Below, in pieces: positions 8,160 to 52,584 of a DNA stretch of 64,000 bases (positions are counted from its first letter, which is position 1; the number at the start of each line of letters is the position of its first letter). Position numbers and translations under genes: made by a program. The DNA lies in contig JBGSXW010000005.1 in assembly GCA_041751215.1 (NCBI GenBank), positions 67,664-131,663 on the forward strand, written 5' to 3'. The notes under the pieces are model-generated. The model ran no database searches. It saw nothing but the letters and a program-made list of their open reading frames with translations, and was not told the origin of the DNA. This DNA comes from Candidatus Saccharimonadales bacterium (GTDB lineage Bacteria; Patescibacteriota; Saccharimonadia; Saccharimonadales; JBGSXW01).

Positions 8160-8348
8160 TACATACACGCGTCAGTCAAAACCTCTGAATTTGTGAGGAT
8201 AGAACATGGAGCAACGAGGACTGTTCTGACGGACTCCGCAGTTGCCCAAGTTCTAGCTGAACAAATTCTTGAGTGTTTTGCCTGCAGCGTGAAAGTTTTG
8301 CGCCACTTTATAAAAAGCGGCAGAAGCGCGCCACCGCAGGTGGCAAAC
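8160..8348 (-). repeat. intergenic modular repeat, copy A (truncated), immediately downstream of rpoD
   Basis: The reverse complement aligns with 29466-29650 and 49263-49520. Shared blocks: GCCGCTTTTTATAAAGTGGCGCAAAACTTTCACGCTGCAG, TTCAGCTAGAACTTGGGCAACTGCGGAGT, CAGTCCTCG, CTCACAAATTCAGAGGTTTTGACTGACGCGTG. Confidence 0.75.
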
Positions 8349-8351
8349 AAA

Positions 8352-9458
8352 CTACTTTAAGTAATCATGCAGACGCTTCGCGTCCTTGTGTTTCCGAAGT
8401 TTAGCCAATGCTTTAGCCTCAATCTGCCTAATTCGCTCACGAGTAACATTAAACTCCTGCCCTACTTCTTCTAGGGTGTGGCTTTTGCCGTCTTCTAAAC
8501 CAAAGCGCATCTTCAAAATCTTTTGTTCGCGCTCGCTCAAAACGCCCAGCATATCTTTAACGTGTTCTTTAAGCAGCTGGCCAGTAGCAGACTCTTCTGG
8601 AGTTACGGTGTCTTCGTCCTCAATAAAGTCGCCGAGTACAGAATCTTCCTCGTCTTCACGAACTGAGGCATCAAGCGAGCTAATGTCCTGCTTGATCTTC
8701 ATGATGTGCTCAACCTTCTCAACTTCAATCTCCATTTCTTTGGCGATTTCTTCGTTGGTTGGTTCGCGGTTAAGTTCCTGTGTTAATCGGCGCTGAGTTC
8801 TAAGCAGCTTGTTAATGGTTTCAACCATGTGCACCGGAATACGAATGGTGCGAGCTTGGTCGGCAATGGCGCGAGTAATAGCTTGGCGAATCCACCAAGT
8901 AGCGTAGGTCGAGAACTTAAACCCCTTAGACGGATCAAACTTTTCAACTGCGCGGAGCAGTCCAGTGTTACCCTCTTGAATCAGGTCTAACAGATCTAAA
9001 CCGCGTCCCACGTAGCGCTTAGCAATTGAAACAACTAAACGCATGTTTGCTTCGGCCATTTCGTCTTTGGCCTTTTTGTCGCCGGCAACCACACGGTTAG
9101 CCAGAGTAATCTCTTCCTCGGGAGTTAGTAGTGGAATCTTACCGATTTCGCGCAAATAAAGACGCACTGAGTCATCGGCCACATCATCGAGATAGCCCTC
9201 GTTCGGTGCTACAGCCTCTTCTTCTTCGGCTTCCCATTCCGCGTCTTTGCCTTCGACTTCGATGCCTAGATCAACCAGCTCAGTAAACAAGCCGTCTAAA
9301 ACTTCGACGTTGTCATTGTTGTCCGGAATCTTTTCGTATATTTCTTTTTGATCAATTGTGCCGGTTTTTTTGGCTTTTTCGAGCAACTCTTGCTTAATTT
9401 GTTCTAACGAATCGGGGGTAGCTGGTGCCGCCGCCTTTTTCTTGCCTTTTGGTGCCAT
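8352..9458 (-). CDS. rpoD: RNA polymerase sigma factor, primary sigma-70
   Basis: 368-aa ORF. Region 2 [28 protein letters not shown], region 4 [25 protein letters not shown]. Acidic N-terminal region. Confidence 0.97.
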
Positions 9459-17840: not shown

Positions 17841-19532
17841 CTACATCTTCTCCGGAACTTTAATTCCAAGTAGACTTAAGCCGTCTGTAAGCACTACTCT
17901 GACAGTCGCCAGCAGAGCTGTTCTTGGCTGTTCTTGATCGCTACCCAGAACCTTTGTCGTCTCGTAGTAACGGTTGAGTGTGCGGGCGATATCGTACATA
18001 AACATAGCAATCTTGTGTGGTTCCATATTTGTGGCCGCCTCAGAAACCATTTGCGGATAACGAGCTAGCATAAATAACAAGTCCTTTTCAGCCACCCAAT
18101 CATATTCAGTTTTGCTAAGACGAAGATCTTTAATCTGGCCTTTGCGCAGAATCGAAGAAATCCTAACCGCCGCGTACTGAACATAAGGCCCAGAATTGCC
18201 CTCTAAGCTCACGGACTCTTTTGGATCGTAGATTACATCTCCGCCAATGCCTTGCTTTAAAAATGCGTACTTTACTGCCCCGAGCATGACTGTGTGATCT
18301 TTATGCCCGACTGTTTCTTCCATGGCAGCGGTAGCTTCGTCTAAAACATCGACTGCGCGCAAAATGTTACCTTTACGACTACTCATCTTGACGCCGCCCT
18401 GAAGTTTTACGTTGCCGTGAGTGATGTGACGCGTAGCTTCAGAGAGCTTAGGCTGAAACTGCTCAATGCTTTTTAGCACGACTTTCATGTACTCAACAAT
18501 GTCGTTCCCGGTAATAATAACTGATTGATCAAAGTGGTAATCTTCCCACTTTTTGATGATTAGGCCGACGTCTTTGGCCTCATAAGTTGGCAGCCCCTCG
18601 GAGTTAATAAATACTCGTTTGTGCAACCCGTGCTTTTCGCCGTCAAATATTACAGCTCCGTCGCTAACTTCGTAAACTCCAGTTTTTTGCTGTTCTTTTA
18701 CGGTTGCAAGTCCAATCGGTGCGGTTTGGCTTTCTGGGTAAAATCGCTCAAATTCTGAGCCGATGGTTTTATAAAATTCTTTAAAGTAATCATAGCTCCA
18801 CTCACGACAAGTCCAGTAAACCTTAGCCAGGTCTGAGTCGCGGTCGTTGTCTTTATGAATTTGGTAGATACTTTTGTTCAGTTTAATTACTTCTTTTTTG
18901 ACATCCTCGTCAGCTTCGAAGACTGCATTGCCTTCGACGTAGGCCGCAGTTAGCCACTCGGCATGATCTTCAACCTCAGCCAGCTTATCGGGGTTTGCAC
19001 CGCCCAAGCGCTTTAAAATAGCCCACATGGTTATCGCAACGTGGCGCCCAACGTCGCCGCCAAAATTAACACGGTGAACGTTGGCACCTTGAGCTTCAAA
19101 TAGATTGGCGATCGAATCACCCACTACACTGGTGTAGAGGTGCCCTGCGTGCAAAACCTTAAATGGATTTGGATCTGAATATTCCGTGACAATGGTTTTG
19201 TCTTTAAGAACTTCGTTAGATCCATACTTGGCGTGAGTTTTAACGTCGCTAAGCAATTCATCGGCTAAGACTTCAGGTTTGAGCCAGAGATTAAGATATC
19301 CGCCGCTGGCTTCAAGCTTTTGCACTGCTTCAAGCTTAATGGTGGTCGCTTGCTGAGCTAATTCGGCCGGATTTTTGCCTAACTTGCTTGCGGCTTTAAA
19401 CAACGGCAGCGCTAAATCAGCACCAGATTTTGGGTTGGCAATTTCAAGAGTTAGCTCTGATTTATCTAGATCGCAACTGTGGGCAACGGCTTCGGTAAAC
19501 TCTTGGCTAAACCGATCTAGAAAGTAACTCAT
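17841..19532 (-). CDS. argS: arginine--tRNA ligase
   Basis: 563-aa ORF. HIGH-type motif [23 protein letters not shown] (KMSKS variant), C-terminal anticodon-binding DALR-type region. Confidence 0.93.
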
Positions 19533-21210: not shown

Positions 21211-22433
21211 TGTTGGTAAATATTCGCATGGCGCTAGCCGCTCTTCGCTCAGCGAAAGTTAGAACAATGCTGACTATGGTGGCCGTAATTATTGGTGTTA
21301 CTGCATTTACGGTTGTAACTACTGTGGCCGACGGCTTTAAGGTCTCTATCGAGAACGAAATTAACGCCTTTGGCGGAAACCTAGTTCAGATCACCCCGGG
21401 AGAGTCGGTAGTGCGCGATGACGAAGGAAATATTGTTTCCTTCAACCCGGTGGCGGCATTTGGAACCTCGACAATCTCTGAAAAAGACGTCAAAGACATT
21501 AAAAATACCCCCGGAATAGCCAGTGCTGCTCCGTTAATGTTAATCTCTGGTGTTGTATCGCGCGGCGAAACCGAAGCACCCGCCGGATCGATGATTATTG
21601 CAACCAACGAGGACTACCCCATAGCCTTTAACCAAGAGCTGGCTCAAGGCGGCTTCTTTAAGGACAGCAACGGAGCTCAGAAACAGATTGTTATTGGGCA
21701 TGGCATTGCCGAGGCGCTGTTTGGAGAGAACAATCCACTAGGCGGTAAGCTACAGATTCGCGGCCAAGACTTTGTGGTTGTCGGTGTGCTAGCAGAAGTT
21801 GAAAGCGCCCTTGGTTTTGCAGGCGACTTTAACACCATGTCGTTTATATCCTCTGCTCAAGGCAAACAGTTCAACAACGGCGTAATCCAAATCATGGAAG
21901 TCGATGCCCAGCTCGAGGACGGAGCCGACCCCGATCAAGTTGTACAAGCAATTACTGAAACGCTGAAAGAGAATCATGGCGGCGAGGAAGACTTTACTGT
22001 CATCAAACAAGACGAAGTATTGGAGCTAACAGATAGCATCATTGGCTTAGCCGAGAGCATTGCCAACACTTTCGCTTACATAATGCTCTTAGTTGGAACC
22101 TTGGTAATTATGCTGATTATGCTGGTTTCGGTCAGCGAGCGAACTAGAGAAATCGGTATCCGAAAAAGCATCGGTGCCGCCAACAGTCACATTTTGTCTC
22201 AGTTCTTAGTAGAAGCCGTCGTGATTAGCTGGCTTGGATCATCACTTGGAATCGTGCTGGCTTACTTGCTTGGACTGTACATCAAGTATTTGATTGATGT
22301 CACTCCTGTTTATACTGTCAGTACTCTGATAGCGACGATAATACTCGCAACTATCGTTGGCGCCTTAGCTGGCTTAGCGCCGGCCTTTAAAGCCGCTCGC
22401 AAAGATCCAGTTGAAGCTCTACGACACGAATGA
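21207..22433 (+). CDS. ABC transporter permease (MacB/FtsX family)
   Basis: 408-aa ORF. N-terminal TM, large extracytoplasmic domain, C-terminal FtsX-type 3-TM bundle. 4-nt overlap with the ATPase gene. Confidence 0.88.
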   Translation: MMLVNIRMALAALRSAKVRTMLTMVAVIIGVTAFTVVTTVADGFKVSIENEINAFGGNLVQITPGESVVRDDEGNIVSFNPVAAFGTSTISEKDVKDIKNTPGIASAAPLMLISGVVSRGETEAPAGSMIIATNEDYPIAFNQELAQGGFFKDSNGAQKQIVIGHGIAEALFGENNPLGGKLQIRGQDFVVVGVLAEVESALGFAGDFNTMSFISSAQGKQFNNGVIQIMEVDAQLEDGADPDQVVQAITETLKENHGGEEDFTVIKQDEVLELTDSIIGLAESIANTFAYIMLLVGTLVIMLIMLVSVSERTREIGIRKSIGAANSHILSQFLVEAVVISWLGSSLGIVLAYLLGLYIKYLIDVTPVYTVSTLIATIILATIVGALAGLAPAFKAARKDPVEALRHE

Positions 22434-23044
22434 TCTCTATAAAACAGCCTCCATCACTGCACTCAATCAACAATGCCCTAACGGTGCTGGTGTTTATTCT
22501 TGGGCTCTATATTCTGATTACTCCATTTACGCCGGTTTTGTCTCTGTGGTGGCAAAATAGCTTCGGTGGTGACGGTTATAACTACTCTGGACGACTAGCC
22601 AACACTGCCAGCTCAGATGCCAGCCAGCCAGCGCCTAAAGATAGCCGATTAGTTATCCCGGCAATTCACTTAGATGAACCGATTGTGGTCGGCGATGATC
22701 CAGCCAACATTGATAAGGGCGTTTGGCATCGTCCCAATACGAGTACTCCCGATTTGGGAAGCAATACGGTTCTAGTTGGGCATCGTTGGGATTATGGACG
22801 AACTACTGCAGTCTTTTATAACCTCGACAAACTAAAGACCGGTGATTTATTTGCGCTTTGGTGGGATGGTAAAGAGTACGTCTACAGAGTGTCTGGGCAT
22901 AAAATTGTTGAGCCAACAGCAGTCGAAGTCGAGGATCCAACCGGAAAACCAATGGTCACTCTCTACACCTGTACACCGATTTGGACAGCTAAGCAGCGCT
23001 TGGTTGTCACTGCCGACTTAGTGATAGATGAGGATGCAAGATGA
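22430..23044 (+). CDS. sortase-family transpeptidase
   Basis: 204-aa ORF. N-terminal TM anchor, catalytic His context VLVGHR, TLYTCTP (TLxTC) Cys motif. 4-nt overlap with the permease gene. Confidence 0.82.
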   Translation: MISIKQPPSLHSINNALTVLVFILGLYILITPFTPVLSLWWQNSFGGDGYNYSGRLANTASSDASQPAPKDSRLVIPAIHLDEPIVVGDDPANIDKGVWHRPNTSTPDLGSNTVLVGHRWDYGRTTAVFYNLDKLKTGDLFALWWDGKEYVYRVSGHKIVEPTAVEVEDPTGKPMVTLYTCTPIWTAKQRLVVTADLVIDEDAR

Positions 23045-23579: not shown

Positions 23580-23660
23580 AGCTAAGCCCTTTGTTTATTG
23601 TTTTATAATGCTTTGGTTTTTTAACAACCCTCTACATATAATTGTACGCCCCGGTGTCAA

Positions 23661-23827
23661 CCCTAGGTGCTTTCGGTGCACACTGACACTGCCCTGCCTA
23701 CTGGCAAAGCCAGTAGCAACCACCAGTTCTTCGTCAGAAGCTCCAGTACTCGCGTATAGTACTTATTTGTACAACAGCACTCCATGCTTCGCTTCTTCCT
23801 TGCAGTGTATGCCGAAAGCACCTAGGG
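23661..23827. repeat. 167-bp element bounded by 25-bp imperfect inverted repeats (MITE-like or structured RNA)
   Basis: CCCTAGGTGCTTTCGGTGCACACTG (23661-23685) against the reverse complement of CAGTGTATGCCGAAAGCACCTAGGG (23803-23827): 22 of 25 match. The interior holds several local hairpins, including CTACTGGC-AAA-GCCAGTAG and AGTACT-N7-AGTACT. Confidence 0.6.
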
Positions 23828-23840
23828 CGTTTTCAGTAAA

Positions 23841-29429: not shown

Positions 29430-29886
29430 AACACCAAGCAAAGCAGCTAGAGTCGCTACGCGCGACGGGAGTAACGCCACCTTTTTAAAAAGGTGGCCCC
29501 AAAACCTTTCACGCTGCAGCTAAAACAATCCTTGAATTCGTTCAGTGAAAACTCGGGTAGCTGCGGAATGCATCCGCCAGCTAGCGGACAGTCCTCGCTA
29601 CGCCGGGTTTCTCCCTCACAAATTCAGGAGTTTTAGCTGATGCGTGTTCAAAATGATGGGACACGCCAGGTGCTGTCCTCACAAGCTCAGAGGTTTTAGT
29701 AGATGCGGCGGGCCATGAGTCTGACCTTTTTTCAGAGATGAACGACAAGGAAGCGCCGAGCAACGGACGAAAGCGTACTTGGGTGTACGGTGGAAGGAGT
29801 AGCGGAGGCGCTGACGCAGAATCAGCAGTGCTGACAGCTTTGCTGTCAGGCAGGCTGATGTTCGTTCGCTATGAAAAGAGGTCAGC
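29430..29886 (+). repeat. intergenic modular repeat, copy B (full length), between two convergent genes
   Basis: Contains the perfect 20-bp palindrome CCACCTTTTTAAAAAGGTGG. Two tandem submodules: CTCACAAATTCAGGAGTTTTAGCTGATGCG and CTCACAAGCTCAGAGGTTTTAGTAGATGCGG. The distal module TTTTCAGAGATGAACGACAAGGAAG...ATGAAAAGAGGTCAGCC is homologous to 49551-49703. Confidence 0.8.
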
Positions 29887-31533
29887 CTACATCATCCCCA
29901 TGCCGCCAGGCATTCCACCGCCTGCCGACATCGGAGATTCTTCCTTTGGAATATCAACCACTAGTGCGCCCATAGTGATGGCAGTACCAGCAATTGAGGC
30001 AGCGTTTTGGATAGCTTCTTTGGTAACTCGAGCTGGGTCAATAATTCCTGAGCTCTTCATGTCTACTAGCTTTTTAGGGTTGGTTACATCAATACCAAAG
30101 CCTTTTTTAGCATCTCGGATCTGAGGAAACCACTCGTCTGGGTTAAGTCCTGAGTTGTGCATTAGCTCAAAGAACGGGCGAAGTAGTGCAGTCTTGAGTA
30201 GTTGTTTGCCTTCGACTAGTGGGTCGGAGCTATCAATCTTGATCGATTCGCTAAGTTGAATCATTGTTACGCCGCCACCAGCCACAATGCCCTCATCAAG
30301 AGCTGCTTTAACAGAGGCCACGGCATCGTCTACTCGGAACTTCTTTTCCTCGATTTCGGTCTCGGTTGCACCGCCAACTTTAATGACCGCAACTTTGCCG
30401 CTCAATGCTGCTCGGCGCTTGTCGAGTTGTTCTTTGTCGTACTCGCTAGCTGCTTCGGCGCTCTGAGCATTAATCTGAGCTATGCGCTGTTTAACAGAGT
30501 TAGCGGATCCGCCGCCTTCGATGATGGTAGTCTCGTCTTTGGTCACAATGACCTTGCGAGCCGTACCTAGCATTCCCAGATCGGCAGTTTCAAAAGTGTG
30601 CCCTTGTTCCTCACTGATAACCGTAGCGCCGGTTAAGGTCGCAATGTCTTGTAAAACGTCTTTTCGGCGATCACCAAAAGATGGCGCCTTAACGGCAACC
30701 GTATTAAATACGCCTTTAAGCTTGTTGAGCACCAATGTGCCTAAAGCTTCACCTTCTACATCTTCGGCCACGATGACCAAGTCCTTTTTGCCGGCTTGAG
30801 CGGCTTGCTCGAGCAGTGGCAAGAACTCTTGAACCGAGCTCATCTTTTTATCTGTTACCAGAATCAGAGGCTTTGAGTAAACCGCTTCCATGCGAGCACT
30901 GTCGGTTACCATCAGCGGACTAACGTAGCCGCGGTCCATGCTAAAGCCCTCGACAACTTCTGATTCGACTTCTAGACCTTGACCTTCTTCGACTGTTACT
31001 ACGCCGTCTTTGCCAACTTTATCTATAACATCTGCAATGAGAGCACCAATAGCTTGATCGCCAGCCGAGATTGTTGCGACTTCGGCCACGCGCTCTTTTT
31101 TGCTACCAATGTTTTCGCTCATGCCGGATAACTTCTTAAGAATGTCGCTGGCGGCGGCTTCGATTCCTTTGCGCAACTGCATTGGATTGTGTCCGGCTGC
31201 AATCAGCTTATTAGCTTCGTTGAGAATGTGGTAAGTCAAAACCGTAGCTGTGGTTGTACCATCACCGGCTACGTCATTCATTTTGTTAGCAGCTTCTTTG
31301 ATTAGGTCAGCTCCAACACTGTAGCCAAGCTTCTCGTCATCATCCTCGGGTAGTTCAACACCTTTAGCGACCGTTACACCGTCGTGAGTAACAGTAGGAT
31401 TTCCGTAACCCTTGCTGATAACTACGTTGCGACCTTTTGGCCCCATCGTTACCTTTACGGCGTTATAAAGTGCTTCTGCGCCACCAAGCACTCGTCGCCT
31501 TGCATCGTCATCATAAAATACTCGTTTAGCCAT
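29887..31533 (-). CDS. groL: chaperonin GroEL
   Basis: 548-aa ORF. AGDGTTTATVL motif, full-length GroEL pattern, C-terminal GGMPGGMGMM tail. Confidence 0.98.
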   Translation of the reverse strand: MAKRVFYDDDARRRVLGGAEALYNAVKVTMGPKGRNVVISKGYGNPTVTHDGVTVAKGVELPEDDDEKLGYSVGADLIKEAANKMNDVAGDGTTTATVLTYHILNEANKLIAAGHNPMQLRKGIEAAASDILKKLSGMSENIGSKKERVAEVATISAGDQAIGALIADVIDKVGKDGVVTVEEGQGLEVESEVVEGFSMDRGYVSPLMVTDSARMEAVYSKPLILVTDKKMSSVQEFLPLLEQAAQAGKKDLVIVAEDVEGEALGTLVLNKLKGVFNTVAVKAPSFGDRRKDVLQDIATLTGATVISEEQGHTFETADLGMLGTARKVIVTKDETTIIEGGGSANSVKQRIAQINAQSAEAASEYDKEQLDKRRAALSGKVAVIKVGGATETEIEEKKFRVDDAVASVKAALDEGIVAGGGVTMIQLSESIKIDSSDPLVEGKQLLKTALLRPFFELMHNSGLNPDEWFPQIRDAKKGFGIDVTNPKKLVDMKSSGIIDPARVTKEAIQNAASIAGTAITMGALVVDIPKEESPMSAGGGMPGGMGMM

Positions 31534-31853: not shown

Positions 31854-31880
31854 TTAGCACTTGCACTATGAGAGTGCTAA
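31854..31880. promoter_or_regulatory. CIRCE operator (HrcA binding site) of groES-groEL
   Basis: TTAGCACTT-N9-GAGTGCTAA against consensus TTAGCACTC-N9-GAGTGCTAA. Lies between the promoter and the groES start. Confidence 0.9.
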
Positions 31881-42194: not shown

Positions 42195-42410
42195 CTACAA
42201 GCTGCTGAGGTCGATGACCCAGTTGAGGACCAGGCCGCCCAGCATGTAGAGAGCCCAACCGACGAGCACTAGCGCCGCCACGCCCACGGAGGCAATGATC
42301 AGAAGGCGCAGCCCCCCGAGCGTTGCTTCCATCTGCTCTTCATCACTGAGCGGCTTCTGGCCATACGCCAAGCTGTCGAGACTGAAGTCTGTAGCATGTT
42401 CGTCCATCAT
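42195..42410 (-). CDS. 71-aa single/double-TM small protein (islet D, gene 3)
   Basis: Track ORF with an acidic N-terminus, then LRLLIIASVGVAALVLVGWALYMLGGLVLNWVI. GC3-rich. Confidence 0.5.
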   Translation of the reverse strand: MMDEHATDFSLDSLAYGQKPLSDEEQMEATLGGLRLLIIASVGVAALVLVGWALYMLGGLVLNWVIDLSSL

Positions 42411-42465
42411 GATTCCCCCTGATGGTCTAGTTTTCGAGTGAACTTTGCTAGCCCCTTTTTGCCAC

Positions 42466-42567
42466 CTAGAAGATCGCGGATACGATCCAAAAGATCAGGA
42501 ACCAGAGAGCAAGGCTTATCGGCATTGCAATCACCAGGCCCTTGAAAAAGTTGCCTTGTGCTTCCAT
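42466..42567 (-). CDS. 33-aa hydrophobic micro-protein (islet D, gene 2)
   Basis: Hand translated: MEAQGNFFKGLVIAMPISLALWFLIFWIVSAIF. A G-rich SD-like GGGGGG lies 4 nt upstream. Confidence 0.4.
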   Translation of the reverse strand: MEAQGNFFKGLVIAMPISLALWFLIFWIVSAIF

Positions 42568-42590
42568 CTAACCCCCCGGGGTTCAGACCG

Positions 42591-42761
42591 CTACTGGCTT
42601 GCCACCACCAAAATTGCGACTGGCAGCACCAAACACAGCGACATGAGCGAAAAGAGCACGAAGCCGAGCCGTCGTCGGTACTGCGGGTCTACTTTGTAGT
42701 CCGGATGTGAGCGGGATTCGCTGCGCCTCAACGCCGGTTCGTATGGAAAGTGCGGGTACAT
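42591..42761 (-). CDS. 56-aa single-TM small protein (islet D, gene 1)
   Basis: The internal Met of track ORF 42591..42872 is preceded by a perfect AAGGAG 7 nt upstream. MYPHFPYEPALRRSESRSHPDYKVDPQYRRRLGFVLFSLMSLCLVLPVAILVVASQ. Confidence 0.55.
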   Translation of the reverse strand: MYPHFPYEPALRRSESRSHPDYKVDPQYRRRLGFVLFSLMSLCLVLPVAILVVASQ

Positions 42762-42864
42762 GGGCGTCTCCTTGGAGTCGTCGAACAGTCTATCTCTTGT
42801 CGATGAACTTCTCGAGCACATTAAGCGCTCAACACTAATAATTACTGTAGTATCAAAACCCTGA

Positions 42865-44683: not shown

Positions 44684-45049
44684 ATGATAGACGTCGACCC
44701 AAATCAAGAGGCTGTAGATATTACACCTTCAATGGCGTTGATTGCAGCTCGCAATCAACTGGGGCTTGCTCATTACGAACGAGGCATCATTTCAGATGAA
44801 GCGGTTGAGTGCTTTACGGTGGCAGCTGCCGTCGTGCATGATGTCGGCGCTCGTTACCTAGAGACAATGTCCGAAGCTTCAGGCTTACCACTGATAGGAG
44901 TTGAAGCCCAGCGTGAAATCGCTTTTTCTACCCTAGTCGAATACGGAAGCCGAAGCGTCGACCACTCAAACACTCACGAGCAATACTACGAACACACCTT
45001 AAAGTTCCTAAAAGATCTTAGTCAGCTATTTGAAGATGAAGGCTACTGA
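44684..45049 (+). CDS. hypothetical protein
   Basis: About 121-aa ORF. Start uncertain: track 44648, alternative Met at 44684. No motif. Confidence 0.45.
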   Translation: MIDVDPNQEAVDITPSMALIAARNQLGLAHYERGIISDEAVECFTVAAAVVHDVGARYLETMSEASGLPLIGVEAQREIAFSTLVEYGSRSVDHSNTHEQYYEHTLKFLKDLSQLFEDEGY

Positions 45050-45591
45050 AGCCAGGAATACTTTTTAACTAGATTTTGCTTGGCCCACCATTTTCCAAGT
45101 CCTAAGACCTGAGTGCCATTAGCTAGAACTATCCCGATTAGAACCAGCGAGTAAATAATATGGTCGTCGACTATCGGATGATGCTCGGGCGGCAATACGG
45201 CCGTGTACATCATCAAAAGCATTGCAGCACCAGAAATTGCTGCGATTTTTACGCCAATCCCAAGAATTAGCGAAGCTCCGATTAACAGTAGTCCCAGCAT
45301 AAATAGCCAGTCCACAAAGGCACTACCCGCCAAACTTTGGTAAAAGTCGGCAAACGGACCTTTTGTGCCGAAGTTAAGAAAGCCCTCGGTTGGCGATCCG
45401 CCATTAATCCAGGCTGACTCACACATTTTATCTACTACATTAGTTTCGCTGTTTCTACAGGTTGAAAATCCTAAACCATACAGCTTATCGGCAAACGCCC
45501 AAAGAAAAATTGACCCCAAGCCAATTCTCAGTAAAGCGATGACGTAATCCAAACTCAGTGCATTAATCTGCTTAGTGCTTTTACGAGCCAT
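45043..45591 (-). CDS. DoxX-family membrane protein
   Basis: 182-aa ORF with four TM helices. N-terminal LLRIGLGSIFLWAFADKL pattern is typical of DoxX. Confidence 0.7.
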   Translation of the reverse strand: MARKSTKQINALSLDYVIALLRIGLGSIFLWAFADKLYGLGFSTCRNSETNVVDKMCESAWINGGSPTEGFLNFGTKGPFADFYQSLAGSAFVDWLFMLGLLLIGASLILGIGVKIAAISGAAMLLMMYTAVLPPEHHPIVDDHIIYSLVLIGIVLANGTQVLGLGKWWAKQNLVKKYSWLQ

Positions 45592-45817: not shown

Positions 45818-45894
45818 TGGTGTACCCGGCAGGATTTGAACCTGCGGCCTTTGGCTCCGCAAGCCAACGCTCTATCCAGCTGAGCTACGGGTAC
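45818..45894 (-). tRNA. tRNA-Arg(GCG)
   Basis: Reverse complement GTACCCGTAGCTCAGCTGGATAGAGCGTTGGCTTGCGGAGCCAAAGGCCGCAGGTTCAAATCCTGCCGGGTACACCA. Anticodon stem TTGGC/GCCAA, loop TTGCGGA (U33, anticodon GCG, G37). Confidence 0.85.
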
Positions 45895-45978
45895 ATAGTT
45901 TTACTTATTTTACTTGGTTCCATGCACCGAATCTTAGCTGGATAGAGTGGGCCATTATCTAAAACGGCTTCGCCTGGG

Positions 45979-45999
45979 CCAGCTGAGCTACGGGTACAT
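45979..45999 (-). repeat. 21-bp exact duplicate of the tRNA-Arg 5' end
   Basis: CCAGCTGAGCTACGGGTACAT at 45876-45896 and again at 45979-45999. The intervening 82 bp contains a D-arm-like TAGCTGGATAGAG on the opposite strand. Confidence 0.8.
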
Positions 46000-46138
46000 G
46001 ATTTACGTATATAAAATTGCTTGACCATTTGCCTTGGCCGAACGCTAGCAAACGCTAACGCCGGCACAAGTGCATCTGGTTTCTAAATAGAAGGTGCATC
46101 CGCCGGAGGCGGAACAGAGGTCACTATATCACACCGGA

Positions 46139-46666
46139 CTAAAATCGCAAACGTTCAAAGAAACGATCAACCACATCTGGTTGTCTATCTTCGTGCGGCA
46201 AGTGCTCGGCCAAGATATTAACAATTTTTTCCGCGTCTTCGTTGCTAAAATAAACCGAAATTGCGGGTAAAAACCGCTTAACCGGAATGAGCTGCGCGCT
46301 AACAAATCCGACTTCTTGTCTAACGGAAAAGGACTTTAGCTCACTAAAAAGATACTGCTTGTTTTCAATCAAAATGCCACTGGCGCCAATTCCATAGTTT
46401 AGTACTCGGGGCGGGCGCTTGGCAAAAAGAATAAAAGCCGTGAACATTAATGCAATGACAACGGCTGAAACTACGTCGATAAATACAGCCAATAAAACTA
46501 CCAGTACAACTCCGGCAGCCGCCACCCCAATAAACCAACTTGCCTGCTTTTCATGATGAACAAACTCGGAGGCCTGCCAGGTAGTAGTAGGCTCAATTTG
46601 AACTGGCTCAGGCGGACCCTGGGCCTGTTGGAGAGGAGTTTGCGGTTGACCTGGAGTAATTTCCAT
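46139..46666 (-). CDS. two-TM membrane protein, unknown function
   Basis: 175-aa ORF. Pro/Gln-rich N-terminus, a TM hairpin, then a roughly 90-aa cytoplasmic domain. Confidence 0.55.
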   Translation of the reverse strand: MEITPGQPQTPLQQAQGPPEPVQIEPTTTWQASEFVHHEKQASWFIGVAAAGVVLVVLLAVFIDVVSAVVIALMFTAFILFAKRPPRVLNYGIGASGILIENKQYLFSELKSFSVRQEVGFVSAQLIPVKRFLPAISVYFSNEDAEKIVNILAEHLPHEDRQPDVVDRFFERLRF

Positions 46667-46991: not shown

Positions 46992-47248
<257 letters not shown>

Positions 47249-47463
47249 ACAATGGCATGTTAAACAATATCTCCCATCTGGGCAAGCACGTGCAGGCACA
47301 GGAGGGATAGCGCTACGCGCTCAGACTTCGATGCTCGGCAACAACAAGCACAAGGTCTTGCTGTTGGCCTGCGCGTCTTGTCTATCGAACCCCAAGGGGT
47401 TCTCATCTCGTCATATCAACTGCCAGGTCCCTGCAGCCAACCTTTGGGCTGGCTCCATGGACC

Positions 47464-47630
47464 TGGCGGAGAGGGAGGGATTGGGCTAACGCCCCGTTTC
47501 CTCGCGTGCTCTCCGCCTAAGGCGGATGTGTGCGCTCGTTACGACCGCACCCCTTTTGCTACGCAAAAGAAGGGTTCGAATGACTATCCACTGCCAGTCT
47601 GCATAGCCCGCTTACGCAGGCCATCCAGAC
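47464..47630 (-). repeat. tRNA-Ser-associated element, copy 2
   Basis: The same 19-bp fragment (47464-47482) plus the 148-bp core (47483-47630), abutting tRNA-Ser(GCT). Here the 19 bp exactly repeats the tRNA's own T-loop-to-CCA end (47631-47649). Confidence 0.85.
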
Positions 47631-47723
47631 TGGCGGAGAGGGAGGGATTCGAACCCTCGCAGGAGATTGCTCCCCTCTAACGATTTAGCAAACCGTCCCC
47701 TTCAGCCTCTTGGGTACCTCTCC
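47631..47723 (-). tRNA. tRNA-Ser(GCT)
   Basis: Reverse complement GGAGAGGTACCCAAGAGGCTGAAGGGGACGGTTTGCTAAATCGTTAG...GAGGGTTCGAATCCCTCCCTCTCCGCCA. Anticodon loop TTGCTAA, long variable arm, encoded CCA. Confidence 0.9.
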
Positions 47724-48689: not shown

Positions 48690-48723
48690 TTCTAAGTGTG
48701 AAGCTAAAGTGGAGGTAGGTTTT

Positions 48724-49185
48724 ATGGCACGAAAACAACAGAAGCCTGAAGACGATCTGTTGATGGACGATGAACTCGCCACAGCATTTTTAGACGATGG
48801 CGATGCAGCTGGCTCTATGCCAGTAGCACAAGATGAAGAGTGGGACGAAGATGATGGTCTGCCTGGTCAGCTAGCCATTGATTTGTATGAGACCAAAGAG
48901 AAGTTGGTTGTTAAGGCTCGGGTTGCGGGTGTTAACAAGAACGATCTCGATGTAAATATTTCTGATAACACCCTGTCTATTCACGGCACTTTGACTTCGG
49001 GTGACGAAGTTGAAGCTGAGAACTATTTTGTTCAAGAGTGTTACTGGGGCGAATTCTCGCGCAGTATTGCTTTGCCTGTACCGGTCAAAGAAGATGAGAT
49101 TGAAGCTGTCCTAAAAGACGGCGTTCTGACCATCTCCTTCACAAAAGTGAAGCAAGACACTGTTAAGAAGATCGAGATCATGTAA
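48724..49185 (+). CDS. Hsp20/alpha-crystallin small heat-shock protein
   Basis: Start at MARKQQ (48724), preceded by GGAGG. Alpha-crystallin core LAIDLYETKEKLVVKARVAGVNKNDLDVNISDNTLSIHG...GEFSRSIALP...AVLKDGVLTISF. Confidence 0.92.
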   Translation: MARKQQKPEDDLLMDDELATAFLDDGDAAGSMPVAQDEEWDEDDGLPGQLAIDLYETKEKLVVKARVAGVNKNDLDVNISDNTLSIHGTLTSGDEVEAENYFVQECYWGEFSRSIALPVPVKEDEIEAVLKDGVLTISFTKVKQDTVKKIEIM

Positions 49186-49205: not shown

Positions 49206-49240
49206 AAAAAGCTCCGGGAAACCGGGGCTTTTTCTTTTTG
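49206..49240 (+). terminator. rho-independent terminator of hsp20
   Basis: AGCTCCGG-GAAA-CCGGGGCT hairpin followed by TTTTTCTTTTT. Confidence 0.75.
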
Positions 49241-49703
49241 TCGCTTACCAGCGAGAGGAATTTCCACTTTTTATAAAGTGGCGCAAAACTCTTCACGCAG
49301 TTACCAAAATTGGCTTCTTTGTCGCTATCGCGACGGAGTAATGACGCCTTTTTCAAAAAGGTGTCCCAAAACTCTCCCGCTGCTGTAAAAACACCCATGA
49401 GCCTACTTCATTCAAAACTCGGGCGGCTGCGGAGTTCGTCCGCCAGTTGGGCGGACAGTCCTCGCCGCTCCGGGCCTTGGCTTCGCAAACTCAGAGGTTT
49501 TTACAGAGGCGGGGAGAAATACCGAACATTAACCCTAGTTTTGGCTAATTCTTTTCAGTGATGAAGCACAAGGAAGATACGAGTAGCGGAGCTCAGCTGT
49601 ACATGGAGGGTACTGCTGGCGAGCAACGGAGCATCTAACGATGAGCAGCCAGTGCTCCGCCGGATGGTGGAGGCAGGGCTGCGGTGATTCGTGCTGAAAA
49701 GAG
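49241..49703 (+). repeat. intergenic modular repeat, copy C (full length), between hsp20 and the pilin array
   Basis: Two palindrome submodules (CCACTTTTTATAAAGTGG, GCCTTTTTCAAAAAGGTG), each followed by CAAAACTCT.C.CGC.G. Then TTCAAAACTCGGGCGGCTGCGGAGT...GGACAGTCCTCGCC...GCAAACTCAGAGGTTTTTACAGAGGCGG. The distal module is homologous to 29721-29886. Confidence 0.8.
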
Positions 49704-50105
49704 TTAGCCCTGGAGAGAGGTGAGGACGAAGTTGACTAATGCGTAAGCTAGGAACGAAATAACAATACCAACGATTGCATAAAGAATGGTGTTTTTAGCA
49801 CCCTGGACGGCATTCTGATCACCAGCGGATACGACATAGCGAATTCCACCAATGATTAACATGATCACGGAGATAGCACCGACTACGAAGAGCATAGTGT
49901 TAACGACAGTTTCAAAAATGCTGTTGTCACCAAACAGGTTCTCTTGTGTTGGATCAGGTACGGCACAGTTAAGGCCGCCTTCAATTCCGCCGGCTGCGGT
50001 TTCACAGTTACTTTGTGCTGCCACGCTTCCGACTGACACTAAAGCAGTGGTTGCCCCGGTAGCTGAGGTTATTGCTAGTTGTTTTACTTTTTGATTAATG
50101 GACAT
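49704..50105 (-). CDS. T4SS pilin-like protein (VirB2/TrbC-type), paralog 1
   Basis: 133 aa. Signal-like N-terminus, Cys pair SNCETAAGGIEGGLNC, two C-terminal hydrophobic helices around GGIRYVVSAGDQNAVQGAKNTILYAIVG. Confidence 0.75.
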   Translation of the reverse strand: MSINQKVKQLAITSATGATTALVSVGSVAAQSNCETAAGGIEGGLNCAVPDPTQENLFGDNSIFETVVNTMLFVVGAISVIMLIIGGIRYVVSAGDQNAVQGAKNTILYAIVGIVISFLAYALVNFVLTSLQG

Positions 50106-50180
50106 CTTAGCTCCTTAGAACTTCTTATGGGTTTTAGTATATATCACAGGACTTCATCGGTGCAACAAGCTAGTGGCCTT

Positions 50181-50573
50181 TTATAGTGAATTTATGACAA
50201 AATTCACCAGCGCGTAGGCCAAAAAGGCCACCACTACACCCACTATTGAGTACATGACGGTGTTTTTTGCACCCTGGACTGCATTTGCGTCTCCGCCCGA
50301 CACCGCGTAGCGAATGCCACCGATGATCAGCATAATGACTGATATGCCACCGATCACAAACAACATAACATTAATTATATTTGCAAATATGCTGTCGCTA
50401 CCAAAAAGAGGCGTACTGGCGTTTGTGTTGACGCAAGTATCAACTTTCCAGGTTCCACCGCTACCTCGACAGATCTCCGCTTCTGGTTGAGCAAAAACTT
50501 GGTCCACGGACAGCAAAGCTACTGTTAGAGTAGTGGCCGCAAGTGTTGCACGTTTAGTTAGTCGATTAGTCAT
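50181..50573 (-). CDS. T4SS pilin-like protein, paralog 2
   Basis: 130 aa. Signal-like N-terminus, Cys pair EICRGSGGTWKVDTC, GGIRYAVSGGDANAVQGAKNTVMYSIVG. Confidence 0.75.
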   Translation of the reverse strand: MTNRLTKRATLAATTLTVALLSVDQVFAQPEAEICRGSGGTWKVDTCVNTNASTPLFGSDSIFANIINVMLFVIGGISVIMLIIGGIRYAVSGGDANAVQGAKNTVMYSIVGVVVAFLAYALVNFVINSL

Positions 50574-50583
50574 TTAGGGTTCC

Positions 50584-51000
50584 TTAAATACTATTAATTA
50601 CAAAGTTAACCAGAGTATAGGCCGCGGCCGCGACGATAACGCCAATGACGGCATAGAGGATCGTATCTTTGGCTCCTTGCGTCGCTTGAGCATCTCCACT
50701 AGATAAAACGTAACGAATACCGCCAATCACAATCATTATTACTGATGCAGCACCGACTATGTAAATAAGTACATTTACGATATCAGTAATAACATCCCCG
50801 AGACTTGCAGCACCATCACCACCGGCATCCCTGACCGCATCCTCCGCCTCGCCCTTAAGCGAGTCGTCGACTTGTCCTGGCCCACCAAACGGATTAACTT
50901 GAGCTAGCACAGTGGGCGCTGCGAACAAAGCTAAAGCGCCGAAGTAAGCGGTAAAAATTATCAGGCTGCTAGCAGTAATCATTGATAGTCGTTTAATCAT
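50584..51000 (-). CDS. T4SS pilin-like protein, paralog 3
   Basis: 138 aa. Signal-like N-terminus, no Cys, GGIRYVLSSGDAQATQGAKDTILYAVIG. Confidence 0.75.
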   Translation of the reverse strand: MIKRLSMITASSLIIFTAYFGALALFAAPTVLAQVNPFGGPGQVDDSLKGEAEDAVRDAGGDGAASLGDVITDIVNVLIYIVGAASVIMIVIGGIRYVLSSGDAQATQGAKDTILYAVIGVIVAAAAYTLVNFVINSI

Positions 51001-51002
51001 TA

Positions 51003-51428
51003 TTAGATCCTTTCTAGTACAAACAGTACCAAGCTCTGGGAGACTATAGCAATAGCTACCCCAATTAGCGCATACATGATTGTATCTTTAGCACTCTTAG
51101 TTGACTGCGGGTCTCCACCAGACAAAACATACTTGAGGCCACCGATAACTATAACTACTGTCGATATGGCCGCTATAACATACACTAAGGCTTGAGTAAT
51201 ATTAGTAATGACTCCGTCTGGGCCAACTAGCGGATTGCCTCCGTCGGCTTGGGCTGCCGCATTTTCTTTACAGACAGCTGGCAGGTTGTCTGGATCGGCA
51301 GTCTCGCAGGCTGGATCTATGACATCTACAGCTAGGACATCGCTTGTACTAACTGCGAATGAAACCACAGTCAGGCTTGTTAATATTAGTGTTAGTAAGA
51401 GTAGTTTTCTATACATTGTCGAATACAA
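51003..51428 (-). CDS. T4SS pilin-like protein, paralog 4
   Basis: 141 aa. Signal-like N-terminus, Cys pair PACETADPDNLPAVC, GGLKYVLSGGDPQSTKSAKDTIMYALIG. Confidence 0.75.
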   Translation of the reverse strand: MYSTMYRKLLLLTLILTSLTVVSFAVSTSDVLAVDVIDPACETADPDNLPAVCKENAAAQADGGNPLVGPDGVITNITQALVYVIAAISTVVIVIGGLKYVLSGGDPQSTKSAKDTIMYALIGVAIAIVSQSLVLFVLERI

Positions 51429-51723
51429 ATCCCACTATCGTAAAGGCCATAAGTGCCAAAACTAAACCGATAATTGCATACAGTATGGTGTCTTTAGCGC
51501 TTTGAATGCCGCCAGGATCACCCGAGGACGTTACATATTTTAGAGCGCCAATTACTACAAACAATAGGCTTAGCCCGCCGATAACCCCAAAAACAATCTG
51601 TAGAATTGTCTGAACCGCTGACTGGTCGGCAGAGATCATTGGAATTGGCACCTCATCGCCGGTAAATTTGTTAACCTCGTCTTGTATTGCCTGCGCAAAA
51701 CGTATGATTGTGGCGTAAAACAT
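51409..51723 (-). CDS. T4SS pilin-like protein, paralog 5
   Basis: Start probably at Met 51723, 1 nt after the upstream stop (track start 51759). No classical signal peptide and no Cys. GALKYVTSSGDPGGIQSAKDTILYAIIG. Confidence 0.7.
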   Translation of the reverse strand: MFYATIIRFAQAIQDEVNKFTGDEVPIPMISADQSAVQTILQIVFGVIGGLSLLFVVIGALKYVTSSGDPGGIQSAKDTILYAIIGLVLALMAFTIVGFVFDNV

Positions 51724-51724
51724 A

Positions 51725-52096
51725 TTAATTAAACTGTCCTGCAATAAATGATACGACAAGCGTTGCCATTATGGCGACAATCAGACCAATAATAGCGTTG
51801 GTAATAGTATCTCTTGCAGCTTTAATACCATCTGGGCTGCCCTGGCTAGTAACCATTTTAATAGAACCCCAAATTATAAAACCGACAGCAAATAGCGCAC
51901 CGAGTCTAGTTAATATCTCAATAAGGGCTGCCAAGATGAGCCAGATGTCATTAATATTGTTAATCGCTGGTATGCAGGTGTCGCCGAGTTCTAGATACTC
52001 GTACCAGGCCGGAAAATCTAAGACGTTTCCGCCGGAGCCACGACATTCCGCACCGGTTTTTCCAAACTGAGTCACTATATTAGTAGGATCTATCAT
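51725..52096 (-). CDS. T4SS pilin-like protein, paralog 6
   Basis: Start probably at Met 52096, in a TAATG overlap with paralog 7 (track start 52180). Cys pair AECRGSGG...GDTC. GSIKMVTSQGSPDGIKAARDTITNAIIG. Confidence 0.7.
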   Translation of the reverse strand: MIDPTNIVTQFGKTGAECRGSGGNVLDFPAWYEYLELGDTCIPAINNINDIWLILAALIEILTRLGALFAVGFIIWGSIKMVTSQGSPDGIKAARDTITNAIIGLIVAIMATLVVSFIAGQFN

Positions 52097-52584
52097 TATC
52101 CAAATATCCCTCCTGGAACCAACCATTGCAAGAATGCAAACATAAATATGTAGGCAAGTAGCGCAATAACAACGTTCCAAATATGATCTTTGGCGGCGCT
52201 GACTTGTTGTGGGTTGTCCTGCGCCATTATGTATTGTATGCCACTTAAAACTAAAGCAAAAACAATAATTATTCCGATTCCGGCCGCTAGAAATCTACTT
52301 ATGCCCCCGATATAGGCCAGAATTGGGTTGTCATTGTCTGTGCAATTTACATCGACACTTAGCTTAACGTCAGAGGTGCCGCAGTCTGCGCCGTCACGAT
52401 CTATCGGTATACCGCCAAGCTCGCTGTCTTCTGGACTAATAGGGTCGGCCGGAACAGTTGGGTCGGTCTGAGCACTAACAGGTGGGTTGAAATAACTGTC
52501 TGTGACGGTTGCCCCTCCAATACCTATTAATAGCATCGCTAGAAAAAGAGTCTTTGTTAAAATTTTAGTCTGTTTTAATATCAT
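52096..52584 (-). CDS. T4SS pilin-like protein, paralog 7 (most divergent, first in operon)
   Basis: 162 aa. Signal peptide, Pro-rich linker, Cys pair DCGTSDVKLSVDVNC, SGIQYIMAQDNPQQVSAAKDHIWNVVIA. Confidence 0.65.
   Translation of the reverse strand: MILKQTKILTKTLFLAMLLIGIGGATVTDSYFNPPVSAQTDPTVPADPISPEDSELGGIPIDRDGADCGTSDVKLSVDVNCTDNDNPILAYIGGISRFLAAGIGIIIVFALVLSGIQYIMAQDNPQQVSAAKDHIWNVVIALLAYIFMFAFLQWLVPGGIFG

Follow-up and report, generated by a model that had tools for sequence, protein, structure and literature searches.

The loci described here, from a 64-kb window of contig JBGSXW010000005.1 of a Candidatus Saccharimonadales bacterium (the window being the whole stretch of DNA analysed), are best explained as mosaics of two lineage-specific, non-coding insertional repeat families. 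With a probability of roughly 0.6, we consider these families to be non-autonomous elements, mobile or recently mobile, of the general kind of MITEs, Rickettsia palindromic elements (RPEs), ERIC and BOX sequences. The first family, P-hp2, has two small hairpins and, after them, a long one (hp2) measuring about 140 nt. The second, S, stands on its own as an element of about 175 nt; it folds into a three-way junction made of two arms and a closing stem of roughly 24 bp, with conserved, purine-rich junctions and internal loops.

The genomes of Saccharibacteria and other CPR bacteria are small, about 1 Mb, and contain hardly any spacer DNA. Interspersed repeats are, to our knowledge, not a known trait of these bacteria, and our literature search found no description of interspersed repeats in Saccharibacteria or CPR. 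In the 80 kb surveyed, the two families fill most of the long spacers, each recurring about once every 13-16 kb, and they reshape gene ends. They represent a second, independent case of palindromic elements in a reduced genome, as in Rickettsia.

Architecture of the P-hp2 family

A preliminary description of the window had pointed to three regions with common ordered modules, named P, Q, R and S, and blastn against the whole window established that the similarity is real (E values from 1e-18 to 2e-23). Copy B (29452-29634) is 75% identical to copy C (49321-49501) over 186 bp (E 2e-23), and copy A (8165-8317, inverted) is 72% identical to copy B over 167 bp (E 1e-18). Copy C matches copy A at 67% over 162 bp and, in its truncated first unit C1, at 94% over 35 bp. 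The three regions matched no further locus in the 64 kb. The P tail, Q and R do not form a linear string of motifs: they supply, in that order, the 5' arm, the apex and the 3' arm of a single hairpin about 140 nt long, and P, Q and R together make up one P-hp2 unit. This unit of about 200 nt comprises a GC hairpin of 5-6 bp (hairpin 0), an A/T-centred palindrome hairpin, and hp2 with its conserved apex. The short open reading frames inside the loci are, as had been noted, unconserved, with stops at differing places in all six frames.

Copy A lies on the minus strand. Its hairpin 0 (8330..8344), which reads GCCACCTGCGGTGGC on that strand, begins 11 nt past the rpoD stop codon; elsewhere GTCGC..GCGAC stands at the equivalent position, a different stem giving the same fold. 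The A/T-centred palindrome hairpin of copy A (8302..8321, GCCGCTTTTTATAAAGTGGC) contains one G·T pair and has one mismatch to the family palindrome, 0 such matches being expected by chance. It is followed by an imperfect hp2 hairpin of the short-apex type (8162..8301), which scores 143.6 bits (E 1.5e-35) with the hp2 covariance model CM R1 and has a fold z-score of -4.9.

In copy B, on the plus strand, hairpin 0 (GTCGCTACGCGCGAC, 29452..29466) precedes a palindrome that is perfect, as first reported, and measures 22 bp rather than the 20 bp initially given (GCCACCTTTTTAAAAAGGTGGC, 29476..29497, self reverse match 22/22). The hp2 of this copy (29500..29650, 161.6 bits with CM R1) is of the long-apex type, with an apical hairpin added by an 11-nt insert. 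An extra solo 3' arm follows on the same strand (29666..29708); over 36 nt it shares 94% identity with the terminal copy of contig L066. Copy C, also on the plus strand, starts directly after the hsp20 terminator with C1 (49240..49310), which retains hairpin 0, the palindrome (49263-49282) and, of the 5' arm, no more than its beginning. A complete unit, C2, comes next, with hairpin 0 and the palindrome hairpin at 49321..49364 (GTCGCTATCGCGAC and ACGCCTTTTTCAAAAAGGTGT, the latter with one G·T pair) and a long-apex hp2 at 49366..49517 (155.3 bits with CM R1). The duplication of submodules was thus seen correctly from the start: R occurs twice in copy B (29611-29645 and 29674-29708) and P twice in copy C (the stub at 49240-49310 and the full version at 49321-49364).

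Architecture of the S family

Copies B and C each continue into an S element on the plus strand, at 29716..29892 (171.5 bits with the S covariance model CM R2) and 49539..49715 (167.1 bits), respectively. The closing stem of the former stops 1 nt short of the groEL stop codon on the opposite strand. A pilin-like gene (49704..50105) runs convergently to the latter, and its stop codon falls within the closing stem, GGCTAA..TTAGCC. S had been thought to occur in these two copies only, a view refuted by copy G, a full solo S on the minus strand (23654..23831, 110.1 bits, E 6e-28) with a closing stem of 25 bp. Copy G begins 10 nt past the pgi stop codon (23841), ends 75 nt before the next gene and is sense to both; it had escaped blastn as well as the first reading. 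A partial, weak S match at 47323-47383 (21.9 bits) was left out of the counts.

Covariation and strand bias

Compensatory change in the stems had been suspected from GTCCGCC/GGCGGAC in one copy as against TCCGC/GCGGA in another. That example proved to be a stem extension; the suspicion itself was well founded, with an effect much stronger than claimed, both hp2 and S showing strong compensatory change. For hp2, 89% of cells are paired versus 34-46% with slid partners, and 11 pairs carry double changes versus 3.8±1.6 in shuffles, a number that none of 500 shuffles attained. The hp2 test was restricted to three complete copies because RNAalifold gave a degraded result when the truncated copy of L041 or the MAFFT-aligned copy D was included. 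For S, 93% of cells are paired (30-43% with slid partners), and double changes affect 22 of 61 pairs in three MAFFT-aligned copies and 42 of 61 in seven model-aligned copies. The covariation of S is unusually clean and provides a ready consensus structure for testing its own propagation against an RNA function.

The two families differ in strand preference. The forward strand of S is more stable by 6-19 kcal/mol in all six copies, G·U cells outnumber A·C cells by 27 to 7, one U·G pair is invariant, and S is sense to local transcription wherever this is defined (copies G, F, H and D). The bias of hp2 is opposite and weaker, the reverse strand being more stable by 8-11 kcal/mol in four of four copies, and its consensus pairs hold only 8 A·C versus 5 G·U cells. 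Fold z-scores of the loci range from -4.9 to -5.9.

Copy census, genomic setting and relatives

A census with the two covariance models over 79.5 kb of one metagenome-assembled genome (the window together with contigs L066 and L067) yielded five hp2 copies and six S copies, the additional ones being the solo S inside the window and four copies just outside it. Copy A (P-hp2) and copies G, F and H (S) occur singly; B, C and D are joined in the fixed order P-hp2-S, with a composite length of about 430 nt. Partial or duplicated pieces also occur, namely truncated C1, the second R of copy B and a truncated S in copy D. In window coordinates, three S copies are on the plus and three on the minus strand. 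No two of them are near-identical; the identity among them, about 70%, does not demonstrate recent transposition.

The copies occupy the gene boundaries of a very compact genome and, once, an in-frame position within fpg. The generalization that they sit at the 3' ends of highly expressed or stress genes is true for three loci only, the others adjoining pgi, fpg, rpsT and rnpA, and a link to such genes is not supported. Composite copy D lies upstream of rpsT, and other copies are found upstream of rnpA or between co-directional genes. The S closing stem of copy F overlaps the fpg stop codon, and in copies G, F and D a gap of 43-75 nt separates the end of the S element from the start codon downstream. 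Lineage-specific genes without assigned function (195, 527, 143 and 344 aa) border several of the copies. A tie to one family of neighbouring genes was rejected, the neighbours being mutually unrelated.

Comparison with relatives is in line with insertional behaviour. The syntenic holA-rpsT-X spacer measures 473 bp here, with copy D, versus 215 bp in relative L065, and both families are absent from about 110 kb in six relatives. Relative L041 (84% GroEL identity, 2.2-kb contig) carries both elements downstream of groEL, where P-hp2 is reversed in orientation and follows a 35-nt S remnant. Between the same two species, groEL four-fold degenerate sites are 36.5% identical, against a random expectation of 27%, while the elements are 75-80% identical, which argues that they are not neutral leftover DNA. 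The repeats break short-read assemblies of these genomes, contigs L001, L041 and L066 terminating within copies, and they could serve as strain markers.

An S element within a DNA-repair gene

Copy H (L067:18511-18686) interrupts fpg in frame and is translated as part of this gene for a DNA-repair enzyme. The protein has 345 aa versus 292-294 aa in two relatives; the insertion adds about 56-58 residues, the frame stays open and conserved motifs are found on both sides. The match to the Pfam N-domain of Fpg ends at residue 86, corresponding to profile position 89 of 117. In-frame insertion is known from this single case. No conserved S-encoded peptide was detected, stops being present in the corresponding frame of the other S copies. 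A profile of the S-frame peptide retrieved only two low-complexity proteins from 1.84 billion representative proteins, and a reverse-frame peptide alignment, used to seek more copies, matched none of 5.8 billion proteins.

Signals, enzymes and database searches

No promoter-like signals belonging to the elements were found, and the hairpins are not followed by a U-tract on either strand. Terminator-like sites are limited to the hsp20 terminator, which lies outside the element, an alternative fold in copy A and a weak 5-bp site (29709-29723) between the second R and S of copy B, no more than chance would give; no such site is shared among copies. Of the genes beside the elements, hsp20 and the 195-aa gene have a terminator-like site of their own; rpoD, groEL, the 527-aa gene and the pilin-like gene do not. 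A terminator/antiterminator switch operated by the palindrome was rejected as not general, the alternative terminator-like fold being confined to copy A.

Scanning of the window ORFs against Pfam and NCBIfam revealed no transposase, RAYT, Y1 transposase, TnpB or integrase. Six S copies, the exact ends of which are uncertain, showed no direct repeat at their stem boundaries that would indicate a target-site duplication. At gathering scores, Rfam returned only tRNAs in the window and no family match for the elements, and relaxed searches of loci A, B, C and G, with E cut-offs of 10 or 1, gave nothing relevant. Blastn against phages and plasmids produced no match. Four DNA patterns of the hp2 core gave no or single matches in unrelated taxa among GTDB species representatives, JGI metagenomes and IMG/VR; these single matches are attributed to chance because blastn gave no extended similarity. 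An S pattern had no match in IMG/VR. As for known motifs, the CUGACGA junction of S fits the CUGANGA core of the hammerhead ribozyme in some copies only, and a hammerhead was rejected given an unfit layout and the silence of Rfam. Readings of the palindrome region as parS, CIRCE, dif, attC, or a Shine-Dalgarno sequence with a small ORF were likewise discarded as half-site or chance likeness by eye.

Comparison with known repeat systems

BIMEs are built of REP units of 20-40 nt mobilised by RAYT transposases. A REP/BIME-like element was one of the natures proposed in the preliminary description, and it is the proposal closest to the evidence, inasmuch as the elements form multi-copy mosaics absent from most relatives. 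Membership in the REP/BIME/REPIN group does not hold: the units here are 140-175 nt long, no short REP unit (5' GTAG) is present and the scanned ORFs include no RAYT. Pneumococcal BOX, RUP and SPRITE repeats cluster and insert into one another (PMC10969869). Like these and the BIMEs of E. coli, our loci are modular mosaics with variable numbers of submodules and bunched families (PMC10969869), an architecture that accounts for the repeated P and R, although sequences and sizes are different.

RPEs were reportedly dealt with by Ogata et al. in 2000. They are hairpin-forming repeats of about 100-150 bp or more that occur as several families in a reduced genome with no known transposase, and they fuse in frame with ORFs (PMC10969869). 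Like RPEs, which are both intergenic and in frame in housekeeping ORFs, the elements described here include an in-frame palindromic insertion kept in translation, S copy H, a single case. They differ in host phylum (Patescibacteria/CPR versus Alphaproteobacteria) and have no apparent sequence relationship to RPEs. S, moreover, is no simple palindrome, since its fold is a three-way junction whose loops are conserved and whose G·U pairs favour one strand, and no conserved encoded peptide was detected.

The hp2 hairpin resembles ERIC/IRU sequences in several respects: it is an imperfect palindrome about 140 bp long, it lies in transcribed spacers and may point either way, internal insertions give it size variants (short and long apex), and it is kept across species above neutral DNA. 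It is distinguished by the two conserved hairpins that precede it, by the S element that often follows and by an unrelated host lineage. Membership in the ERIC family (127-bp consensus) is implausible given the unrelated phylum and the lack of plasmid or phage blastn matches.

In MITEs, the terminal inverted repeats are conserved transposase sites. As in classical MITEs (Correia/NEMIS), the present elements are small (175-200 nt), non-coding (no conserved ORF) and multi-copy (five hp2 and six S copies in 79.5 kb), with complementary ends that form RNA hairpins. Their termini, in contrast, covary, being complementary within each copy and different between copies: S ends read CTGACC, GGCTAA, CCTTGA, TTCAAA and CCCTAG, and hp2 has four basal-stem variants. 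Neither a parent IS among the scanned ORFs nor a σ70-like promoter-like site was seen, and no target-site duplication was evident at the S ends, whose exact position is uncertain.

Integron attC sites offer a last parallel, in a strand-specific fold kept above sequence and a position directly after stop codons. Here, however, the stem ends lack the R''/R' cores (RYYYAAC/GTTRRRY), the scanned ORFs contain no intI or other integrase, and the copies are dispersed among housekeeping genes rather than arranged in a cassette array.

Nature of the elements

If the families are insertional repeats, the fold of one strand would be recognised on copying or insertion, possibly by an enzyme acting in trans. 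The copies would then be co-transcribed with their neighbours and would thereby furnish mRNA 3' ends, intercistronic gaps and the spaces where genes converge with stem-loops of high stability. When transcribed, the hairpins of ERIC and Correia elements become RNase targets, and ERIC at gene 3' ends alters mRNA decay (PMC10969869). The stem-loops described here may block 3' exonucleases, offer cleavage sites to double-strand-specific RNases or serve as insulators, as a by-product that was possibly co-opted. Some observations run against mobility: no partner enzyme was found in the scanned ORFs of the window, no target-site duplication is visible at the uncertain ends of S, and the strand bias of hp2 is opposite to that of S even within a composite. 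In addition, the outermost stems vary among copies while conservation is highest in the internal loops and junctions, which is the reverse of a classical MITE and the signature of a functional structured RNA.

S, and perhaps hp2, could instead be cis-acting RNA modules that benefit the host, selected locus by locus to stabilise, process or insulate mRNAs, their spread being secondary. Such modules might be protective 3' or 5' stem-loops, RNase III or RNase E sites, protein-recruiting motifs or barriers between convergent genes without intrinsic terminators. Conserved loops, covarying stems, the invariant U·G pair, the excess of G·U on the sense strand, the sense orientation and the short distance that copies G, F and D keep from the following start codon are all consistent with this role, as are the four neighbouring genes without a terminator-like site and an identity between species that persists where synonymous sites are near-saturated. 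A position within fpg would be unexpected for such modules, however, and relatives manage the same genes without them. Downstream of groEL, the two carrier species arrange the elements differently, U-tracts are missing, and fragments and duplicated arms resemble debris rather than design. On balance we regard selection at each locus as unlikely.

The conserved loops may also be read as the active part of an undescribed, lineage-specific class of structured RNA comprising S and perhaps hp2, not the relic of a DNA transposon: either a module that moves or propagates itself at the RNA level or an RNA domain that recruits proteins. Its binding or catalytic core would be formed by CAAGGAAG, the twice-repeated GAGCAGCGGAG loop, CUGACGAAGA and the CAGUGCU/AGGCAGG junctions, and the S stems would be free to evolve by compensation. 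We put this forward tentatively, as unlikely.

A role at the DNA level is more doubtful still. The elements would be recognition sites, in folded single-strand or duplex form, for a recombinase or nucleoid protein: attC- or REP-like recombination sites at the junctions of acquired genes, or protein-binding arrays, as suggested earlier, here centred on the A/T-rich palindrome. A strand-specific structure kept above sequence is also a property of integron attC sites, several copies adjoin lineage-specific genes, and the palindrome is perfect in copy B. Those genes are mutually unrelated, though, no integrase or recombinase is encoded nearby, attC cores are missing, and the copies are dispersed in both directions without forming an array. 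The sense-strand bias, with the S copies equally divided between the two strands in window coordinates, suits transcription over replication.

Independent small RNA genes, whether trans-acting or derived from 3' UTRs, are very improbable. The stable folds and the location of the three window loci downstream of genes speak for them. Against them stand the absence of promoter-like sites and of terminators after the units, copies that lie within coding sequence (fpg) or upstream of genes (rpsT, rnpA), a length and mosaic make-up that differ by locus, and the lack of an Rfam match even at E values up to 10; the 3'-UTR-derived family proposed earlier is not supported in that form. Chance or low-complexity similarity is refuted, with nothing found in its favour, by the blastn E values within 64 kb, by covariance-model scores of 94-182 bits and by a level of covariation that was reached in none of 500 shuffles.

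Two repeat families and their folds

Two multi-copy repeat families account for the three look-alike loci of the window, A (near 8162-8344, minus strand), B (29452-29892, plus strand) and C (49240-49715, plus strand). The sequence likeness claimed in the preliminary description was confirmed by blastn against the window (E 1e-18 to 2e-23): B aligned with C over 186 bp at 75% (E 2e-23) and with inverted A over 167 bp at 72% (E 1e-18), while C and A shared 162 bp at 67% and 35 bp at 94%; no fourth matching locus was found in the 64 kb. Its assignment of the flanking genes also stands, with rpoD (8352..9458, minus strand) adjoining A, groEL (29887..31533, minus strand) adjoining B and the Hsp20 gene (48709..49185, plus strand) adjoining C. 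At all three loci the genes on either side converge.

Folding of each copy (single-copy z-scores of -4.9 to -5.9 for the loci) revealed that the modules P, Q and R are real and are parts of a hairpin, not the linear string of motifs first described. An imperfect hairpin of ~140 nt, hp2, has the P tail (CACGCTGCAG..AAAAC) and R (GTTTT..CTGATGCGTG) as its arms and Q (CTGCGGA...ACAGTCCTCG) as its apex. On its 5' side lie two small hairpins, a 5-6 bp GC stem and then an A/T-centred palindrome, the whole forming the element P-hp2. The GC stem reads GTCGC..GCGAC in B, in C1 and C2 (a truncated stub and a full copy, both within locus C), in copy D on contig L067 and in the related contig L041, and GCCACC..GGTGGC in A. 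The palindrome, described as perfect over 20 bp, is perfect in copy B and measures 22 bp (29476-29497). R is indeed doubled in B and P in C; an 11-nt apical insert with an extra small hairpin is present in B and C2 and absent from A, D and L041. The short ORFs inside the loci are unconserved, as had been noted, with stops in every frame at sites differing from copy to copy.

The second element, S, is separate from P-hp2 and has a predicted three-way junction fold, with a closing stem of ~24 bp, a first arm tipped by GUAC..GUAC and carrying two symmetric internal loops (GAG-CAGC-GGAG), a second arm between CAGUGCU and AGGCAGG, and junctions CAAGGAAG and CUGACGAAGA.

The folds of both elements are kept by compensation, which had been suspected from the stems and exceeded all 500 shuffles in a covariation test of each. 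For hp2, the RNAalifold consensus on a MAFFT alignment of the three complete window copies has 63 pairs, with 89% of cells paired (34-46% after sliding the partners) and 11 two-sided pair changes, against 3.8±1.6 after shuffling (0/500 reach 11) and 1-4 after sliding. Four versions of the basal stem occur, each compensated relative to the others: CAGCTAAAAC/GTTTTAGCTG, CTGTAAAAAC/GTTTTTACAG, CAGGCAAAAC/GTTTTGACTG and CTACCAAAAC/GTTTTGGTAG. Three MAFFT-aligned copies of S gave 93% paired cells (30-43% slid) and double changes in 22 of 61 pairs (7.9±2.3 shuffled, 0/500). Seven copies gave 93% paired cells and double changes in 42 of 61 pairs (21.0±3.0 shuffled, 0/500), counts that lean towards structure because this alignment was fitted to the model. 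At the tip of the second arm, compensation replaces CTGACAGC/GCTGTCAG of B by CTAGCTGC/GCAGCTAG in F, CTACTGGC/GCCAGTAG in G and CTCCGCC/GGTGGAG in C.

Distribution of the copies

The source genome of the window is saccharibacterial (TM7, Candidate Phyla Radiation), and its nearest named relatives are Candidatus Saccharibacteria / Saccharimonadales. Logan contigs of run SRR28170463 encode an identical GroEL, and two Logan contigs from that sample, L067 and L066, add 8.7 kb and 6.7 kb beyond the window. The resulting 79.5 kb were searched with covariance models, R1 for hp2 and R2 for S, and further copies were found beyond the three loci, for a total of five hp2 and six S. Within the window R1 matched only A, B and C2; R2 matched B and C and, in addition, another full copy, G (23654-23831, minus strand, 110 bits), between pgi and a gene for a 143-aa protein. 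S is thus not, as initially proposed, confined to B and C. On L067 are a solo S, F (19285-19461), whose closing stem includes the fpg stop codon, a copy inside fpg, H (18511-18686, 94 bits), and the composite D (22079-22470), a P-hp2 followed by a truncated S, which lies between the divergent rpsT and a 570-aa gene and points at the rpsT start. The 3' arm of an hp2 (E, L066:16839-16881), 94% identical to the second R of B, lies upstream of rnpA. In three of the five hp2 copies, S follows in the same order and orientation.

These families break up short-read assemblies of such genomes, since contigs end inside copies: L001 stops 147 nt into the S of B, L041 in the hp2 apex and L066 within the hp2 3' arm. 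In contrast, L067 spans copies A, F, H and D. At 47323-47383 (minus strand) the first arm of S has a weak partial match (21.9 bits, E about 3e-4), which may be either a decayed fragment or a chance similarity.

S is kept on the sense strand. Among its paired cells G·U outnumbers A·C by 27 to 7, one U·G pair is invariant, and the forward strand is 6-19 kcal/mol stabler than its complement in all six copies. Wherever local transcription has a clear direction (G, F, H, and D with respect to rpsT), S lies in sense orientation. Replication direction fails to explain the bias because the copies are split three plus and three minus in window coordinates. The trend of hp2 is opposite and suggestive: in the predicted folds the reverse strand is 8-11 kcal/mol stabler in 4/4 copies (A, B, C2 and D, L067:22262-22416), although on its consensus pairs A·C cells exceed G·U cells by just 8 to 5. 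Within one composite, hp2 and the adjoining S therefore prefer opposite strands.

Insertional footprints and related genomes

One such footprint is copy H. Fpg has 345 aa here against 294 and 292 aa in two relatives, and the extra 56-58 residues, between the invariant HLKMTGQ and GHP motifs, coincide with the S match to within 1-2 codons. The reading frame stays open, and 88% of the S fold remains paired. The Pfam N-terminal domain match ends at residue 86 (profile position 89 of 117), whereas that of a relative spans the whole profile.

Neither hp2 nor S was detected by either model in ~110 kb from six related genomes (L002, L003, L042, L064, L065 and L068; 79-80% GroEL or 82-85% RpoD identity), in which the spacers after rpoD, groEL and fpg are 0-125 nt long. 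The syntenic holA-rpsT-X spacer measures 473 bp here and 215 bp in relative L065. The closest relative, L041 (run SRR27710318, 84% GroEL identity), carries an element downstream of groEL: a 35-nt remnant of the S end, then a P-hp2 oriented opposite to copy B and nearest to copy A (105 nt at 80%). Four-fold degenerate sites of groEL are 36.5% identical between the two species (27% expected at random), so the elements, at 75-80%, are by sequence comparison not neutrally drifting orthologous DNA.

Nature of the elements

The in-frame copy, the overlapped stop codons, the larger syntenic spacer, the change of orientation between species and the fragments are footprints of insertion. No known family matches, and the behaviour of the elements appears to match that of small structured interspersed repeats, a known kind. 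A 2024 review (PMC10969869) describes frequent in-frame fusion of Rickettsia palindromic elements with ORFs, clustering and mutual insertion of pneumococcal BOX, RUP and SPRITE elements, and effects of ERIC at gene 3' ends and of Correia elements via RNase E/RNase III cleavage of the folded transcript. Without conserved terminal inverted repeats, visible target-site duplication or a parent IS, hp2 and S fall outside the strict definition of a MITE, and likewise outside those of REP/BIME and attC.

The Rfam search initially suggested gave no family, even at permissive thresholds. No match to the elements was found among phage and plasmid sequences, pattern scans of GTDB representatives, JGI metagenomes and IMG/VR gave chance matches only, and no transposase-like domain occurs among the scanned ORFs. 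Our literature search turned up no description of such repeats from Saccharibacteria or Patescibacteria, nor of other interspersed ones.

In the most likely mechanism, the machinery that copies or inserts these repeats would act on the folded single strand. Co-transcription would place very stable stem-loops at mRNA ends and between cistrons, where they would probably affect decay, processing or convergent read-through. The main rival is that the elements have a real RNA function, in keeping with loops that are the conserved part and termini that are the variable part; this same pattern disfavours a pure DNA-transposon relic. No σ70-like promoter was found in or beside the elements, and terminator-like sites are nearly all extraneous to them: the hsp20 terminator lies just 5' of C1, outside the element, and a long hairpin with a T-run, read by eye and absent from the terminator scan, follows the 195-aa gene beside A. 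A terminator-like alternative fold exists in copy A only. The exception is a weak 5-bp site at 29709-29723, between the second R and the S of B, locus B having two such sites against 1.1 expected by chance. The proposed link to stress or highly expressed genes fails, as the wider census adds pgi, fpg, rpsT, rnpA and function-unassigned neighbours; since this genome has next to no spacer DNA, copies are expected to favour gene ends.

Other features of the region

A CIRCE-type inverted repeat (TTAGCACTT-N9-GAGTGCTAA, 31854-31880, one mismatch to consensus) lies upstream of groES-groEL, and L041 has a similar one upstream of groES (about 53-79); HrcA thus seems to control the chaperonin operon, independently of the repeats. 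The window probably adjoins the replication origin, because rnpA, a 40-aa ORF, dnaA, an 84-aa ORF, dnaN and a recF-like gene lie ~3.3-6.7 kb past its right end (L066:13288-16849), all on one strand. The ~600-bp spacer at 42259-42864 has no convincing ORF, Rfam match or match to either repeat model.

Four tRNA-Ser genes occur in the window. A 196-nt direct repeat (46992-47187 and 47464-47659, 98% identity), spanning the 3' ends of two of them (anticodons tga and gct) and ~167 nt further, suggests that this segment was recently duplicated in place. A 26-nt piece of tRNA-Arg (gcg) at 45876-45901 recurs 103 nt away (45979-46004, 92% identity) beside function-unassigned genes (45043..45591 and 46139..46666), and may be the att-like scar of an integrated element. 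Finally, a tandem array of ~7 paralogous T4SS-pilin-like small proteins (PF18895, mutual identity 27-54%) at 49704-52584 is followed, up to 62772, by PrgI-, TraC- and TraG/VirB4-like genes and several large family-less proteins, and the gene content of the cluster resembles that of a type IV secretion or conjugation-like system.
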